From Deltaproteobacteria bacterium TL4 (lineage in GTDB: Bacteria > SAR324 > NAC60-12), in NCBI GenBank assembly GCA_051382335.1, contig JBBCAX010000169.1:1-12680 (forward strand): DNA of 12,680 nucleotides, read 5' to 3'. This document shows positions 1,923 through 12,680 of the stretch, piece by piece. A model generated the notes under the pieces. That model searched no databases. It saw only the letters and a program-made list of their open reading frames with translations, and was not told where the DNA came from. Within the stretch, counting starts at the first letter, position 1. Every line of letters starts with the position of its first letter. The translations under genes and the position numbers were made by a program.

Positions 1923-2296
1923 AGTTCATCTCCACCGAATTAATAAGCTTAAGCATGTACTGAGGTCGATTGGTTTTAGGGCTAACTCTAATTCAGCCTC
2001 TCCTCTGCCTATAACGAACAAACGAAACATTGTAAACCCTAAAAAATACGGAGCATCAGAAAACCCTGTTCGTCGTATTTTCCCCTTCCTCAAAGAACAT
2101 TTGAAAAAACAACGCGATTTCATAAAGAAAACTTTTTATTTTCTTGGGAAAATGTAAAGGGCTTAGTATGGATTTCCTGGAGTTTTTGAGTTTCTGACTA
2201 AAATTTTTATTTGCGTTGAAATTGTAAAATTCCCAGAAACGCATAAAAGCAAAACTTTTTTGAGGAACAACCTCAAACAATAATTCTCGGGGTAGG

Positions 2297-3154
2297 ATGA
2301 AAATTTATCTGGATCTCACAGAAGAGCAAAATCAATTTTTAGAAGACCAGCCGGACTTCGACCTGCAGGGATGGTTTCAACGGGCATTGCGCGGAAAAAT
2401 CAATGAACTTAAAATTAAAAATGAAAATATTAACGTGATTATTGCCGCGGCTGGTTATGATACCCGCATCTCTGAAGTCGTCCACGAGGTCCCCAAAGCC
2501 ATGCTCATGATCAAAGGCAAGAGCTTGCTGGAAAGGCAGTTGGATGAATTGAAGAAATTCAATATAAAAAATATCACGATTGTCAGAGGTTATAAAAAAG
2601 AACGTATTATCGTTCCCGAAGTCCATTACATTGACAACAATGACTATGAAAAAACAGGAATCTTATATTCTTTTTTCTTAGCCTCTGAAAAGATGACAGG
2701 AAAAACGATTCTGTTATATTCGGATATCCTGTTTGGAAAAGATATCCTTGAAAAGTTAATTTATGATGCTTCTGATTTTGCGGTGATTGTGGATAAATCG
2801 TGGCGTGATCATTATCACAACCGCATTCAGCATACGGTCAGCGAGGCTGAACTGGTGACCGTGGAAGAGGGATGGATTTCCCACATGGGGTGCGATATTC
2901 CTTATCAGGAGGCTTACGGTGAGTTTATTGGCCTTTCAGCGTTTTCCTCCAAAGGTGCTGAAGTCGCAAAAAATTTATATGCTGAACTGAATCAGACTGT
3001 TGATAAAAATAGTTTATTCCGAAAACCCCTGACAACGTTATTTAATGGTTTAATCGCGAAAGGAGAAAAAATAACGCCCATTGATATTCTGGGTGGCTGG
3101 TTTGAAATAGATACGTTTGAAGACTATAGAAAGTCTTGGACGATGGTTCCCTAA
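2297..3154 (+). CDS. PntC/LicC-like NTP transferase (phosphonate/phosphocholine cytidylyltransferase family) with a ~40-aa N-terminal extension
   Basis: IIAAAGYDTR, PKAML-IKGKSLLERQ, VRGYKKE, N-DYEKT, LYSDI, GEFIGL and WFEIDTFEDY motifs. SD-like GGGGTAGG lies immediately upstream. Confidence 0.85.
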   Translation: MKIYLDLTEEQNQFLEDQPDFDLQGWFQRALRGKINELKIKNENINVIIAAAGYDTRISEVVHEVPKAMLMIKGKSLLERQLDELKKFNIKNITIVRGYKKERIIVPEVHYIDNNDYEKTGILYSFFLASEKMTGKTILLYSDILFGKDILEKLIYDASDFAVIVDKSWRDHYHNRIQHTVSEAELVTVEEGWISHMGCDIPYQEAYGEFIGLSAFSSKGAEVAKNLYAELNQTVDKNSLFRKPLTTLFNGLIAKGEKITPIDILGGWFEIDTFEDYRKSWTMVP

Positions 3155-3179
3155 AAAAATTATTTAATGGAGTTTTTAA

Positions 3180-4049
3180 ATGAAAAATTTATTTATATCA
3201 ATCCTGTCGTGTTTTCTTTTTTTGTTGAGCTCTTGTGATAAACCTGTTGCCGAAAAGGAGCAGCGTCCGCTCAATATGGTCTTTGTTCCGGCAAGTGAAA
3301 AATCCGAAGCCAGTGAATTTAAATCGTTAATGGATATTGTCAGCCAACTAACCCAAATTGAGTTCAATTTTATCAAGGTTACCGACTACAATGCCGCCGT
3401 AGAAGCCATGCGTGCCGGACATGCGGATATCGCATGGTTTGGCGCGGCTACCTATGTTATCGCGGCAGAGATGGCTGAGGCTGAGGCATTTGCCGCGGGA
3501 ATTCCAAAGGGGCAGAAAGACGCGGGGTATTACACCTATTTTGTTGTCCGCAAAAACAGTCCTGTTAACACGTTGGCCGATGCCAGAGGCAAAGTTTTGG
3601 CCTTGAATAACATTGGTTCTACCAGTGGCGATTATATCCCGCAGGTTGAATTGTTGAAGGTGAATTTGGATATTCATAATAAAGAGCACTTTAAACAGAT
3701 ATTCTATGCGGGAAGTCACGATGCCTGTTTATTGGCGGTTATTAATGAGCAGGCCGATATCTGCGGAATGGCTAGTCATAATTTCGACAGCAGAACCACC
3801 GATGGCACCGTTGCCCCTGACACGGTAAGAATCATTCATATTTCTCCCAAGATACCGCCGGCTCCTCTTGCCTATTCCAAAAAACTGTCACTTGACGTAA
3901 GAAATAAAATCAAACAGGCGGTTCTCGACGCGCATAACCATGGAAAAATCGGAGGCTGGGGAGGCGAAATGGAAAAGTATGTTGCCGTTGAAGATAAAGA
4001 TTTCGACTTAATGAGAGAGGTACGGAAACTGTTGGAAAGCCATCCTTAA
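3180..4049 (+). CDS. phnD: Phosphate/phosphite/phosphonate ABC transporter substrate-binding lipoprotein
   Basis: Lipobox LSSC, plus the DYNAAVEAM, GYYTYFVVRK, STSG and GSHD motifs of the PhnD/PtxB family. GGAG RBS. Adjacent to phnC and phnE. Confidence 0.92.
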   Translation: MKNLFISILSCFLFLLSSCDKPVAEKEQRPLNMVFVPASEKSEASEFKSLMDIVSQLTQIEFNFIKVTDYNAAVEAMRAGHADIAWFGAATYVIAAEMAEAEAFAAGIPKGQKDAGYYTYFVVRKNSPVNTLADARGKVLALNNIGSTSGDYIPQVELLKVNLDIHNKEHFKQIFYAGSHDACLLAVINEQADICGMASHNFDSRTTDGTVAPDTVRIIHISPKIPPAPLAYSKKLSLDVRNKIKQAVLDAHNHGKIGGWGGEMEKYVAVEDKDFDLMREVRKLLESHP

Positions 4050-4073
4050 TTTTTTGTGGTTGAAGGGGTTGAA

Positions 4074-4832
4074 ATGTTAAAAATTGAAAATTTCTCCAAA
4101 ACCTTTGATGAAAATTTTGTGCTGAAAAATGTTAGTTTTGAGTTGGGATTCCAAGAATTTGTGGTCATTTTGGGACCCAGCGGATCAGGAAAAACCACAC
4201 TTCTACGTATGATCAACGGTCTTGTTCCACGTGACAAGGGAAGCCTTTATTTTAAAGGAGAAGCAATCTCAGACGCCAAGCGATTGACTGAACTGCGCCG
4301 ACATTTCGGGATGATTTTTCAACATTACAATCTTGTTGAAAATTTGCGGGTGATTAATAACGTGCTGACTGGCGCTCTGACTGAAACGGATCATTTCCGT
4401 TCACTGCTGTATATTTTTCCCAGAAAACTAAAACTCGAAGCCTTGCGATGTTTAGAACGAGTCCAATTGCTGGATAAAGCCTACGAACGTACCGACAATC
4501 TCTCAGGAGGGCAAAAACAGCGCGTGGGGATTGCGAGAGCGATTATGCAGAAACCGGCTATTATTCTCGCCGATGAGCCTATTGCCAATCTTGATCCGCT
4601 GATCGCCTACAATATCATGAAATTACTGAAAGATATCTGTATTACTAACCATATTTCTGTTATCTGTAACTTGCATCAAGTCGATTTTGCCCTCCAGTTT
4701 GCGGACCGAATTATTTGTCTGGTCGATGGAGAAATTATCCTTGATAAACCTGTCTCCGCTTTGAGTTCTGAAACCATATATCAGGCTTATAAAGGCAGAA
4801 ATCGAGGCATGTTTTTTGAGATGGAAAATTGA
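4074..4832 (+). CDS. phnC: Phosphonate ABC transporter ATP-binding protein (ATG 4074 preferred over GTG 4056)
   Basis: Walker [10 protein letters not shown]-loop MIFQHYNLV, signature LSGGQKQR, Walker [13 protein letters not shown] and H-loop CNLHQV. GAAGGGG precedes ATG 4074. Confidence 0.93.
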
Positions 4833-4941
4833 GGCATGGGGGAAACGCCTATTCACAATCCAATTTTTTTTGATCTTTATGTTCTTCGGGCTTCATTGAA
4901 ACCCCTTCGCATCGCTGAAAATAATTTTGATTTGTTGAAAA

Positions 4942-5742
4942 ATGCAGAACTCCGATATCGAATTAGAGAAACTGATCAAACCTCAGTGGGGGTGGCAAAC
5001 TTATGTTTCCATGCTGGTGTTTGTCCTGGTACTTTTTTTTACCGCAAGACACCTTAAGCTGGATTTTCTCAATGTTATCGGCAATTTCTGGAAGTATGCC
5101 GTTGATCTCTCAGGTCGAATGTTTCCTCCTGATATTACAGACCTTGATAAGCTTCTTTTATCAATGGTTGAAACCATCGAAATCGCTATTTGGGGAACCT
5201 TCCTCGCAATCCTCTTGTCGATCCCCCTGGGGATAGCTTCCGCACGAAATATTTCTCCCCATCCCTCAATTTATCTCATGACAAGGGTCATCACCGTGTT
5301 TTTTCGTTCCATCCCGGAATTTATTTTAGCTATGTTTCTGGTGATTTCGGTCGGATTTGGCGCGATTTCAGGCGTTTTCGCGCTGGGTCTGCATACGATG
5401 GGATTTCTCGCGAAATTTTATGCGGAAGAGATGGAACATGTGTCCATTGAACCGATAGACGCGCTTACCGCAACCGGAGCGACAAAAGCACAGATTTTTG
5501 TATTTGCCGTTGTGCCTCAGGTTTTGCACGCCTTCATTGCTTACAATTTGTATATTCTGGACAGAAACGTGAGAATGGCTACCATGCTGGGAATTGTCGG
5601 AGCCGGTGGTATTGGATATGAACTAATTGCTTATTTCCGAATGTTTCGTTACCAGAAAGTCACCACCATCATTTTGATTATTTTTGTTACGATTCTGATC
5701 ATTGATTTTATTTCTGGTTGGATAAGGAAAAAACTTCGATAG
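4942..5742 (+). CDS. phnE: Phosphonate ABC transporter permease
   Basis: MFPPD, ETIEIA, RSIPE, AKFYAEE, an EAA-like loop DALTATGA, NVRMATMLGIVGAGGIG, and multiple TM helices. Confidence 0.93.
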   Translation: MQNSDIELEKLIKPQWGWQTYVSMLVFVLVLFFTARHLKLDFLNVIGNFWKYAVDLSGRMFPPDITDLDKLLLSMVETIEIAIWGTFLAILLSIPLGIASARNISPHPSIYLMTRVITVFFRSIPEFILAMFLVISVGFGAISGVFALGLHTMGFLAKFYAEEMEHVSIEPIDALTATGATKAQIFVFAVVPQVLHAFIAYNLYILDRNVRMATMLGIVGAGGIGYELIAYFRMFRYQKVTTIILIIFVTILIIDFISGWIRKKLR

Positions 5743-5784
5743 TTCCCAACGCTTTGGATGACCTCGCAAAACTAGCTTATCGGT

Positions 5785-6927
5785 ATGACAGGAAAGCCGC
5801 TCATGACCTTACACTCCAAAGAACGCCTGGTTTGCCATGGCAGTAGCTACTATGAACTGTTGCTGAATGATATCAATCAGGCTCGTTACCATATTGATCT
5901 GGAAACCTATATTTTTGATGCGGATCCTGTTGGTTTTCAGATTGCGGAGGCCTTGATCAAAGCCTCACAGCGGAAAGTCCGCATTCGAGTTTTGGTTGAT
6001 GGCGCGGGTTCTCCATTTTGGGGCGGCCCTTTAGTGGAACAGTTGGAACAGGCGGGAGTTCAAACTCGTGTTTATCATCCGCCTCCTTGGCATCTATGGC
6101 AATGGAGTCGCGCGGTCTGCCGTTTTTCAACCCTGCTCAAATTATTTCACCTCATCACCCGTGTCAATCGAAGAAATCATCGTAAAACCTGCATCATTGA
6201 TCGTCGGATTGCATGGGTTGGCAGTTTTAACATCACCCAAGTTCATCTTGAGCTAGAACTCGGCGGAAAGGGTTGGAGAGATACCGCGGTCCGGCTGAGT
6301 GGGATTGACTTACTTGATTTACAAGAAGCCTTTGACAAAGCCTGGCAATATAAATTTCTTGTTAACGCTTCAGGTTCTGAGACCTTGAGTTCAATCATCC
6401 GCTTAAATAATACTCGTAAGCGTAGACGTCGCTTATACAAAGATCTCTTACAGAAAATGAAAAGGGCACGCAAACGAATATGGATCACGAATGCCTATTT
6501 TGTTCCTGATGTCGCTTTATTATGGCGACTCAAGAAAGCGGCACGACAAAAGATTGATGTTCGAATTCTACTGCCCAAGAAATCAGATGTGTTTTTTATG
6601 CCTTGGGCTTCTGCCACATTTTATGAAAGCCTGATGAGATCCGGCGTCAGGATTTACGAATACTTGCCAGGAATTCTTCATGCCAAAGTCATGATCATTG
6701 ACAATTGGATGACGGTGGGGTCCAGTAACTTAAATCACCGCAGTTTACTTCACGATTTTGAAGTTGATGTCGTCTTAAAGGAACTTCATTCCAGAGTTGA
6801 ACTTCATGATCAATTTTTGGAAGATCTGAAGCAATCACGAGAAATAAATTGGCAGGAATGGACGACACATAATGCCGCCAGACGATTTATGGGGAAATTG
6901 ATTCTTTCTATAAAATATTGGATCTAA
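5785..6927 (+). CDS. clsB: Cardiolipin synthase B-type phospholipase D family protein
   Basis: Two HKD motifs (NHRKTCIID, LHAKVMIID) with GSFN and GSSN, plus LETYIF, WRDT and ITNAYF. No N-terminal TM anchor (ClsB-like). Next to a ybhP-like gene. The start may be ATG 5803. Confidence 0.8.
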   Translation: MTGKPLMTLHSKERLVCHGSSYYELLLNDINQARYHIDLETYIFDADPVGFQIAEALIKASQRKVRIRVLVDGAGSPFWGGPLVEQLEQAGVQTRVYHPPPWHLWQWSRAVCRFSTLLKLFHLITRVNRRNHRKTCIIDRRIAWVGSFNITQVHLELELGGKGWRDTAVRLSGIDLLDLQEAFDKAWQYKFLVNASGSETLSSIIRLNNTRKRRRRLYKDLLQKMKRARKRIWITNAYFVPDVALLWRLKKAARQKIDVRILLPKKSDVFFMPWASATFYESLMRSGVRIYEYLPGILHAKVMIIDNWMTVGSSNLNHRSLLHDFEVDVVLKELHSRVELHDQFLEDLKQSREINWQEWTTHNAARRFMGKLILSIKYWI

Positions 6928-7040
6928 CTCAGCGGTGATGCGTTTTCCTTGACAAGGATCCGGATCACACGGCTTCCTGGTGGAAAACGTGAGTTTGTGG
7001 AGTCACACTTAAAACATTTAGGACACAAGAGAGAACGGCG

Positions 7041-7799
7041 ATGGAACCTCTTACTTTGAAAGCGATCACTTATAATATCCACAAAGGATTCAGTACAGGG
7101 AATCTGAGATTTGTGCTACCCCAAATTCGAGATTCTTTAGAATCCACAAAAGCGGATATTGTATTTTTACAGGAAATTCAAGGGGAGCATCTTGGAAAAC
7201 AACGGAAAATTGAAGCCTGGCCCGAAGAACCTCAATTGGAGTTTCTGGCAACCAATATGTGGCCTCATCACGTTTATGGAAAAAATGCGATTTATGATGC
7301 GGGTCATCATGGGAATGCGATTATCAGTCGCTTTCCTCTTATTTTTTGGGAAAATATCAATGTTTCTCATAGTCCAAAGGCCAGTCGAAGCTTATTACAT
7401 GGAGGACTTCAAATTTCGGAAACGGAAACTTTGCATGTCATCTGTATTCATCTGGGACTGCTAGCCTCCGAAAGGGAAGGACAATTGATTCGATTATGTC
7501 AACGTATTCAAACCCATGTCCCGCCTGAGGAACCGCTTTTGATTGCTGGAGACTTTAATGACTGGAGAGGTCGAGCTGAATATCACATGGAATACGATTT
7601 GGGACTGCATGAGATTTTTAAAGTTTGGCAAGGCAGTCATGCCCGCACTTTTCCCTCATGGTTTCCGACCTTAACGGTTGACCGAATGTACTATCGTGGT
7701 TTGAAACTCAAGCATTGCATACGCATCGATACCCCTCCCTGGAAAAAATTATCGGACCACATCCCTCTCTTTGCAGAGTTCGTATTCAATAGATGCTAA
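7041..7799 (+). CDS. ybhP: Endonuclease/exonuclease/phosphatase (EEP) family protein, YbhP-like
   Basis: TYNIHKG, DIVFLQE, GHHGNAI, HLGL, AGDFNDW, RTFP, DR and LSDH motifs. Confidence 0.85.
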   Translation: MEPLTLKAITYNIHKGFSTGNLRFVLPQIRDSLESTKADIVFLQEIQGEHLGKQRKIEAWPEEPQLEFLATNMWPHHVYGKNAIYDAGHHGNAIISRFPLIFWENINVSHSPKASRSLLHGGLQISETETLHVICIHLGLLASEREGQLIRLCQRIQTHVPPEEPLLIAGDFNDWRGRAEYHMEYDLGLHEIFKVWQGSHARTFPSWFPTLTVDRMYYRGLKLKHCIRIDTPPWKKLSDHIPLFAEFVFNRC

Positions 7800-12180: not shown

Positions 12181-12680
12181 TTAAAACTCTGATTTCACAC
12201 AAAACTCACAGAATTTCCCCCCAAAAGCCGATAATTTGAGAATGCACCGATCAAAAACCAGTTTCCGGTTGGCCTCTTCTTTGAGTTGTTCTCTGATAGG
12301 ATCCAGGTCTTCATGACGTTCAAGAGAGATATAATAGTGATTTTTACCAGGGTCACCCTCATCGGTCGTCAGCAATCCAAGTCGAATTAAATTATCAATA
12401 TAAGCATAGATATTCTTGGGGTGATTACATTTAACGCGTTCTGCGATGCGACTGAAGTGCGGCATCAGAACTTTGGAACCCAAACCAATTTTAGGTGCCG
12501 TTTTAACACGAACATAGGGTTGATCTTTTTCTTTTGCAAAGAACTTGATGATCGCGGCTTCATCAGGAGAAAGTTGCGTGATAATCCATTGATACGCAGG
12601 GTGACTCCCCTCTTTGGAAACATCTCCTTTTTTAAATTGTTTGATCAAATCTCTGAACTGTTGATCCAGCGGAGGTGGGG
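12181..12680 (-). CDS. Abi-alpha / DUF4393 family protein, 5'-truncated by the window edge
   Basis: HPAY..II.QLSPDEA, YIDNLIRLGL and L(S/T)AFG..FC..C motifs. The frame stays open upstream of the called TTG to the window end (PPPLDQQFRD...). Confidence 0.8.
   Translation of the reverse strand, partial: PPPLDQQFRDLIKQFKKGDVSKEGSHPAYQWIITQLSPDEAAIIKFFAKEKDQPYVRVKTAPKIGLGSKVLMPHFSRIAERVKCNHPKNIYAYIDNLIRLGLLTTDEGDPGKNHYYISLERHEDLDPIREQLKEEANRKLVFDRCILKLSAFGGKFCEFCVKSEF

Follow-up and report, generated by a model that had tools for sequence, protein, structure and literature searches.

The window analyzed here, a stretch of 12,680 nt, is the entire contig C169 of Deltaproteobacteria bacterium TL4 (genome G000; 6.6 Mb in 445 contigs, completeness 100%, contamination 2.61%), and we examined six open reading frames (ORFs) on its forward strand. 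An original prediction, made from the sequence alone, had read these as a candidate phosphonate salvage operon, in which a PntC-like enzyme may activate a compound imported by PhnDCE, a phospholipase D (PLD)-type enzyme might transfer it, and an EEP-family enzyme might act as a hydrolase. The six co-oriented ORFs and the intergenic gaps given for them (25, 24, 109, 42, and 113 nt) were confirmed, and the features of the locus are as follows.

2297..3154, + strand: nucleotidyltransferase-like gene with an N-terminal ribbon-helix-helix (RHH)-like domain (285 aa; PF12804)
2297..2422, + strand: N-terminal strand-helix-helix, RHH-like segment of the first protein (residues 1–42), kept in 30/30 members of the clade defined below
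3180..4049, + strand: binding protein of the PhnD/PtxB family (PF12974), with a lipobox-like LLSSC
4074..4832, + strand: PhnC-type ABC ATPase (TIGR02315, 285 bits versus a cut-off of 266)
4942..5742, + strand: PhnE-type permease, single copy (TIGR01097, 278 bits versus a cut-off of 217)
5785..6927, + strand: ClsB-like PLD enzyme (two HKD motifs; 198 versus a ClsB cut-off of 281)
7041..7799, + strand: YbhP-like EEP hydrolase (42% identity to Escherichia coli YbhP)
2259..2277, no strand: inverted repeat of 7 bp with a 5-nt spacer, 19 nt 5′ of the first start codon

The phnC gene starts with the ATG at 4074, with an alternative GTG at 4056, and the binding protein scored above the cut-off of TIGR01098, a general model for phosphate, phosphite, and phosphonate binding proteins, and below that of the TIGR03431 PhnD equivalog (204 versus 261). 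Promoter and terminator scans of the window returned chance-level counts (33 versus 25.0 ± 4.8 and 10 versus 13.4 ± 4.2).

The first four genes form a conserved unit. Searching with the first protein gave 149 matches among 1230 candidates, of which 120 homologues were listed; the best 30 (the protein itself included) are full-length and 53–66% identical, and define its clade. We compared six related loci, namely L001, from a Spirochaetota record, and L032–L036, which are among 80 metagenome loci kept of 123 confirmed. The binding-protein gene lies directly 3′ of the first gene in five of the six, the contig of L034 stopping 83 nt past the stop codon, and all four genes occur in the same order in each of the three loci long enough to hold them (L001, L032, and L033), at 57–79% identity. 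Further, 11 of the 30 clade proteins have a longest contig exactly equal in size to that of a top-30 binding protein (10/16 for contigs ≥4 kb), a measure that serves only as a proxy for linkage; four of these 11 are the window and loci viewed directly, and seven lie beyond them. The neighborhood survey suggested with the original prediction thus upheld the order of the nucleotidyltransferase and phnDCE genes, while clsB and ybhP were in none of the three long loci, where the genes found after phnE are an AsnC-like gene, a 2-hydroxyacid dehydrogenase gene on the opposite strand, and an epimerase-like gene. By synteny, the first four genes occur together beyond chance, and the same is not established for the last two. 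The link between the nucleotidyltransferase and phnDCE is kept across phyla, and the four genes almost certainly constitute a real unit.

The cassette was absent from all 87 other genomes of its own phylum. Surveys of 88 own-phylum and 401 spirochaete genomes found the first gene only in TL4 and in genome G088 (1/401 for the spirochaetes). This sporadic distribution suggests horizontal spread, and comparison of the window proteins against plasmid and phage sequences gave distant matches only.

We then considered the first protein, for which the original prediction had overlooked both the N-terminal domain of ~42 residues and an altered signature loop. Residues 46–285 have the LicC/PntC fold at ~20% identity: the sequence match that ranks first among solved structures is LicC, PntC (PDB 6PD1/6PD2) is the top Foldseek match (E 1.9e-17, 18% identity), and inositol-1-phosphate cytidylyltransferases follow closely behind. 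The signature loop reads GYDTR, where GxG(T/S)R is expected, with G55 replaced by D, and the protein retains R57, K67, D143, E270, and D272. The accessible text of Rice et al. 2019 (PMC6697681) gives the PntC signature as GXG(T/S)RX4-8PK, and the R15A and K25A substitutions leave Tde-PntC with <10% activity.

We scored this motif in 117 of the 120 listed homologues, dropping three without an N-terminus and scoring Arg in a three-residue window. Arg and Lys were both retained in 31/31 stand-alone proteins, 24/24 fusions to an XRE helix-turn-helix (XRE-HTH) domain, and 22/32 proteins with other extensions, compared with 8/30 in the clade of the first protein. Residue by residue, the clade keeps Arg in 24/30, Lys in 9/30, and the second Gly in 1/30, though this Gly is also absent from 6 of the 31 stand-alone relatives. 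All 30 clade members nevertheless share the pocket and metal residues D143, D166, W169, Y173, R176, H179, E183, E185, E209, E270, and D272. Loss of catalytic residues around an invariant pocket is what one would expect if the domain went on binding its ligand with no requirement to catalyze. A separate instance is seen at L038:1398-2444 and L041:4116-5162, where a nucleotidyltransferase domain with neither the Arg nor the Lys, its N-terminus weakly C2H2-like, lies directly before an intact paralogue; in L038, these two genes are followed by an organophosphate-type major facilitator superfamily (MFS) importer. This is a second, independent case of Arg/Lys loss.

Phylogenies were built as quick trees of 49 and 142 rows. 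The 49-row tree places the clade together with other RHH fusions and domains fused to phosphoenolpyruvate (PEP) mutase at a Shimodaira-Hasegawa-like approximate likelihood ratio (SH-aLRT) of 93, but the 142-row tree leaves the PepM-fused link unsettled (support 60). Among the PepM-fused rows, P0074 and P0079 are truncated, with 45–48% identity to PEP mutases that bear the motif, and four other PepM-like labels are weaker. In the trees, homologues located next to genes of the PPDK-like and glutamine-amidotransferase types fall in a clade of their own. Overall, the LicC/PntC fold and the PF12804 assignment bear out membership of the LicC/PntC superfamily; the name PntC itself is too specific, given the RHH-like domain, the catalytic residues lost in the clade, and a family that also serves phosphoesters and phosphoramidates.

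Conservation is higher in the N-terminal domain (residues 1–38, mean majority frequency 0.69) than in the catalytic loop (0.52). Modeled alone as a monomer, the domain forms an extended segment with an alternating hydrophobic strand pattern, followed by two helices (predicted local distance difference test score 89). In a structural comparison against 48,161 chains, 28 of the top 50 matches were RHH proteins (TacA1, ParD2, PutA at Z 3.5, NikR, and omega), three of them labeled as such in their titles, which we read as an enrichment and not a firm match. Sequence searches with the domain found no significant match among solved structures and none in the Atlas, and the 12 library matches were mostly fragments from the same clade. 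More distant homologues have similar N-termini with basic strands, one giving a weak RHH_3 match (E 0.015), and 24 of the 120 listed homologues join the same nucleotidyltransferase domain to XRE-HTH. That this domain has been joined to DNA-binding domains more than once speaks for a sensing role. The modeled fold is suggestive of a protein that may dimerize and bind DNA, and we judge the first protein to be, by a modest preponderance, mainly regulatory. The inverted repeat at 2259–2277 was equaled in 15/200 shuffles and has no counterpart upstream of the related loci, making it a weak operator candidate.

A second nucleotidyltransferase gene lies directly upstream of the cassette in five of the six related loci, with only C-terminal parts present in L035 and L036. 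The three partners with an N-terminus all carry Arg and Lys. The partner is missing in the window and in L001, where a divergent PgsA-like gene is present that may be housekeeping. An intact paralogue is encoded elsewhere in TL4, at C342:11913-12716; it sits on a long branch together with the L034 partner (SH-aLRT 93). In L033, the run consists of a TagF-like PF04464 gene, the intact nucleotidyltransferase, and then the cassette, and in L032 the cassette stands back to back with NeuB, sulfotransferase, and APS kinase genes. The TagF-like protein (L033:6012-7214) has at least 1568 relatives at E ≤ 1e-20 in several phyla, some source-labeled YidC/Oxa1.

The window ORFs include no pepM, phnGHIJ, phnWX, or ptxD, as originally reported, and a search of the whole TL4 genome agreed: PEP mutase (PF13714), PhnJ, PhnG/H/I, PhnA, and PhnZ-type HD proteins had no match, PhnX and PhnW had none above cut-off, and the best PtxD candidate was 30% identical to plasmid PtxD, with the qualification that an assembly of 445 contigs can hide genes. 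Phosphonate synthesis or known catabolism was therefore not found in TL4, and neither was a dedicated transferase. For comparison, PF13714 has no member in TL4 yet is present in 11/14 control genomes, and the G088 match to this family lacks the EDK-x5-NS motif. TL4 has three PF01066 genes, none on the contig of the cassette, and two pstB-like genes elsewhere that fall below the curated cut-off. Synthesis of a phosphoramidate of the O-methyl phosphoramidate (MeOPN) type was rejected, since the PPDK-like query matched TL4 through its nucleotidyltransferase part only. L150:3271-6369 encodes the PPDK-like protein of a phosphoramidate-type cluster, and its N-terminal nucleotidyltransferase domain is related to that of the window.

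To consider what the importer carries, we mapped the pocket of the binding protein, which is ~30–34% identical to plasmid PtxB and PhnD and has 2564 relatives at E ≤ 1e-40. The ligands to the phosphorus-bound oxygens (Y70, Y117, S147-T148-S149, and H180) are invariant in 120/120 relatives. The tail of the cargo would face A38, H200, and A228, of which A38 and the cap residue A228 are kept in 30/30 close relatives. The cap is therefore Ala, compared with Tyr in PtxB and Asp205 in E. coli PhnD, and the Glu177 position is His. Likewise, the Arg223/Thr247 pair of GpxB is replaced by His and Ala (H180+48 spacing), as mapped through E. coli PhnD and not a GpxB alignment. The available portion of Bisson et al. 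(PMC5700983) describes a Tyr cap and an Asp latch in the PtxB phosphite pocket. Read with that account and the accessible part of Wang et al. (PMC12718374), the pocket argues against the phosphite and 2-aminoethylphosphonate (2-AEP) types and lacks the GpxB Arg/Thr pair. Phosphite uptake was rejected, with A228/A38 in place of Tyr/Asp and a best PtxD match in TL4 of only 30% identity. K41 is invariant, and of the 90 sister-clade proteins listed, 88 have Arg at 200 and 80 have Lys at 90, which points to a neutral or anionic tail. The cargo thus probably has a tail larger than H that is neutral or anionic, as far as pocket residues can tell. The sister clade itself (P0151–P0240; 57–63% identity) is large and marine, with a more basic pocket (R200, K90), and no characterized member was found in it.

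As for the class of compound, grouping with PEP-mutase-fused domains in the 49-row tree counts for a phosphonate, towards which we lean slightly. A phosphoester comes somewhat short of an even chance: intact relatives of the nucleotidyltransferase stand beside MFS importers (PgtP/UhpT/GlpT as best families in L038 and L047, below cut-off) and beside CDP-alcohol phosphotransferases, and a phosphoglycerate cytidylyltransferase belongs to the family, all of which count for this cargo. No kinase is present among the cassette genes, LicA not having been searched genome-wide, and this suggests that the cargo arrives already phosphorylated.

We infer the identity and fate of the cargo, DNA binding, and the direction of regulation from these gene and residue patterns, and propose the following mechanism. 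An organophosphorus compound would be bound by the periplasmic lipoprotein and imported via PhnCE. An intact LicC-type cytidylyltransferase, encoded upstream in most relatives and at C342 in TL4, would couple it to cytidine monophosphate (CMP), and a transferase would pass the activated compound to a glycan or lipid, following lic/Pnt logic without de novo synthesis. The first protein, combining an RHH-like dimer module with a ligand-binding nucleotidyltransferase domain, would sense a ligand, probably the CMP/CDP product or the cargo, and may throttle the importer, most simply as an autorepressor. Activation-linked salvage in this lineage is likely, supported by the conserved importer–nucleotidyltransferase link and the TagF-like transferase in L033. 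To that extent the predicted salvage of an imported compound is supported; a phosphonate cargo was not established, and TL4 has no identified transferase. We hold the whole proposal, a sensor-headed, four-gene uptake cassette feeding CTP activation and surface decoration by a separate paralogue, tentatively and at a little under an even chance, and that the pathway is complete in TL4 is doubtful.

Several observations weigh against the proposal. The related loci number just six, and are not all independent, since a single assembly yielded both L032 and L033, and L034 is nearly identical to L036. The window protein is among the eight clade members with both R57 and K67, and the Lys losses fall in derived subclades, corresponding to few events. 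The PepM-fused grouping weakens in the larger tree. The RHH matches reach a Z of just 2.9–4.1, with an unrelated protein in the top row (Z 4.9), and the N-terminal domain alone has no Foldseek match and weak Pfam hits only. In the clade this domain is acidic, averaging a net charge of −3.3 (38 residues, 29 members), and its strand keeps K2 in 25/30 but varies at positions 4 and 6, features poorly suited to reading DNA. No common upstream motif was found across the related loci, only AT-rich words. Finally, the C342 paralogue is unlinked to the cassette, and TL4 has no match to LicD (PF04991), PF04464, or the transferases of L033 and L053, leaving the last step without an enzyme.

Some of these points favor other readings. 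The first protein may be a working cytidylyltransferase whose RHH-like part is a dimerization or autoregulatory add-on, making it bifunctional like PutA or NadR. With R57, K67, and the acidic metal ligands all in place, it is possibly still catalytic in TL4; both loci without a partner (the window and L001) retain Arg and Lys, the XRE-fused relatives have the full motif in 24/24, and the second Gly is missing from 6/31 stand-alone relatives too. Yet the clade has lost this Gly in 29/30 and Lys in 21/30, the Arg/Lys-keeping loci L032, L033, L034, and L036 still have a separate upstream partner, and TL4 has the intact paralogue at C342, so we regard a bifunctional enzyme as unlikely. The acidic domain, its variable strand positions, and the lack of a common operator would also suit a regulatory subunit that does not bind DNA, in which the RHH-like part only dimerizes and the protein contacts the partner enzyme or the ABC ATPase when product accumulates; its gene abuts phnD in every testable locus. 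Because distant RHH-fused relatives have basic strands and the XRE-HTH fusions point to transcriptional control, this is decidedly improbable. The TL4 cassette could instead be an orphan serving phosphorus nutrition, taking up phosphate, or a phosphoester handled by general phosphatases, or else a relic of a horizontally acquired decoration island. No acceptor transferase was found in TL4, none of the 87 other own-phylum genomes has the cassette, and PhnD-family proteins can carry phosphate (Shah et al., PMC10284923) or glycerol phosphate as a nutrient (PMC12718374), according to the accessible parts of these papers. However, the four frames are intact and 57–79% identical to their relatives, two pstB-like genes (below curated cut-off) lie elsewhere, simple phosphate uptake would have no evident need of a nucleotidyltransferase-type sensor, and the Ala cap suggests a larger cargo, making nutrition or a relic improbable.

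In the six-gene version, PntC would produce a CMP-phosphonate for transfer to lipid by the PLD enzyme, with the EEP enzyme as the hydrolase of the pathway. In its favor, all six genes share a strand, the phnE–PLD gap is 42 nt and lacks a terminator-like site, so that read-through is possible, and no other transferase was identified in TL4. PLD-fold enzymes such as E. coli PssA, which uses a CDP-activated donor, provide a precedent. Even so, neither a PLD nor an EEP gene follows phnE in any of the three informative relatives, and neither protein has a match in any of the six related loci. The E. coli record reads ybhP-clsB-ybhN, the reverse of the PLD/EEP order in the window, with no phn gene in the 7.7 kb viewed, and a Legionella adelaidensis record has the EEP gene without clsB in the viewed stretch. 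Genome G081 encodes a 49% identical PLD orthologue with neither the cassette nor an EEP gene in the 11 kb examined, its contig ending just upstream of the orthologue. In TL4, the window PLD is the sole match to itself or to E. coli ClsB, and no second Cls-type PLD was found, as would befit a cardiolipin synthase with a housekeeping role. We accordingly rejected the PLD and EEP enzymes as pathway members on synteny (0/3 relatives) and on the ybhP-clsB pairing without phn genes in E. coli. The roles first assigned to them as transferase and hydrolase are not supported, and the caution that this link was the weakest part proved apt. The six-gene version is very improbable, and clsB and ybhP are in all probability ordinary neighbors unrelated to the cassette.

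The remainder of the window holds other genes. Divergent from the cassette is a B12-binding radical SAM gene (606–1922, − strand), of which L038 and L043 have homologues (40–43%) in the vicinity of related nucleotidyltransferases, FabH/FabF-like genes, and an OPA-family importer, but the six core loci have none; its closest TL4 paralogue (C186) is near a PF01066 gene. The left end carries the C-terminal piece of a PD-(D/E)XK nuclease (81–377, + strand), and an Abi_alpha-domain gene is interrupted by the right end (12181–12680, − strand). Between 7934 and 12004 lie genes for a degP-like protease, a HemY-like oxidase, and a peroxiredoxin, all ordinary housekeeping neighbors.

Returning to the sensor-headed cassette, what is new here is an RHH-like part fused to a catalytically decayed domain, along with a cassette set apart from clsB/ybhP, the import-activate-transfer logic being known from lic and Pnt. 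If the proposal holds, phosphorus nutrition need not follow from phnCDE without C-P lyase, nor a surface free of phosphonates from a missing PEP mutase, and surveys of phosphonate makers and consumers build on both assumptions. It would also add a type of regulator derived from a decayed cytidylyltransferase. The case is weaker for TL4 because no final transferase was found there. The binding protein is a member of a large clade, and one binding screen could reveal the ligand. Taken jointly, the broadest version is on the unlikely side: repeated RHH/HTH fusion to a CMP-phosphonate-sensing LicC/PntC domain would have produced undescribed one-component regulators controlling phosphonate-salvage importers, cells without PEP mutase would display environmental phosphonates, and the uncharacterized PhnD clade (30 close and >2,000 further relatives) would define a new cargo.

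Among known systems, the Pnt pathway (PntC, accessible text of PMC6697681) shares the fold and PF12804, and PEP-mutase-fused domains belong to the group closest to the clade in the 49-row tree. TL4 differs in having no PEP mutase, an importer in place, an extra RHH-like domain, and a signature loop that is degenerate in the clade. With the Lic pathway of Streptococcus pneumoniae (LicB, LicA, LicC, and LicD), the cassette shares the logic of import, CTP activation, and transfer, but uses a phosphonate-family ABC importer instead of LicB, and TL4 has no LicD match. The Cj1416-type phosphoglutamine cytidylyltransferase pathway draws on the same enzyme family. So does CpgD, a phosphoglycerate cytidylyltransferase (accessible portion of PMC12275187), and the family thus also activates phosphoesters and phosphoramidates; no importer linkage was noticed in the portions available for these systems, and nothing in TL4 matches the kinase portion of the PPDK-like protein. 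The available parts of Li and Horsman (PMC8942020) and of the Acker preprint describe no import-linked activation. Searches of full-text literature, with most subscription papers outside their coverage, found no RHH-cytidylyltransferase regulator and no PhnD importer joined to a phosphocholine cytidylyltransferase and a CDP-glycerol glycerophosphotransferase. The PhnT-family importers PtxABC (phosphite), E. coli PhnCDE (2-AEP), and GpxB (glycerol phosphates) have all P-oxygen ligands in common with the cassette, where the cap is Ala instead of Tyr (PtxB), Asp/Glu (E. coli PhnD), or Thr/Arg (GpxB) and no ptxD or C-P lyase is found. PutA (RHH) and NadR (HTH plus adenylyltransferase) are enzyme-regulator fusions. 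The first protein resembles them in joining a putative DNA-binding domain to a metabolic enzyme domain near an importer that it possibly controls, and differs in that its enzyme domain is of the LicC type, with the catalytic residues lost in most of the clade.

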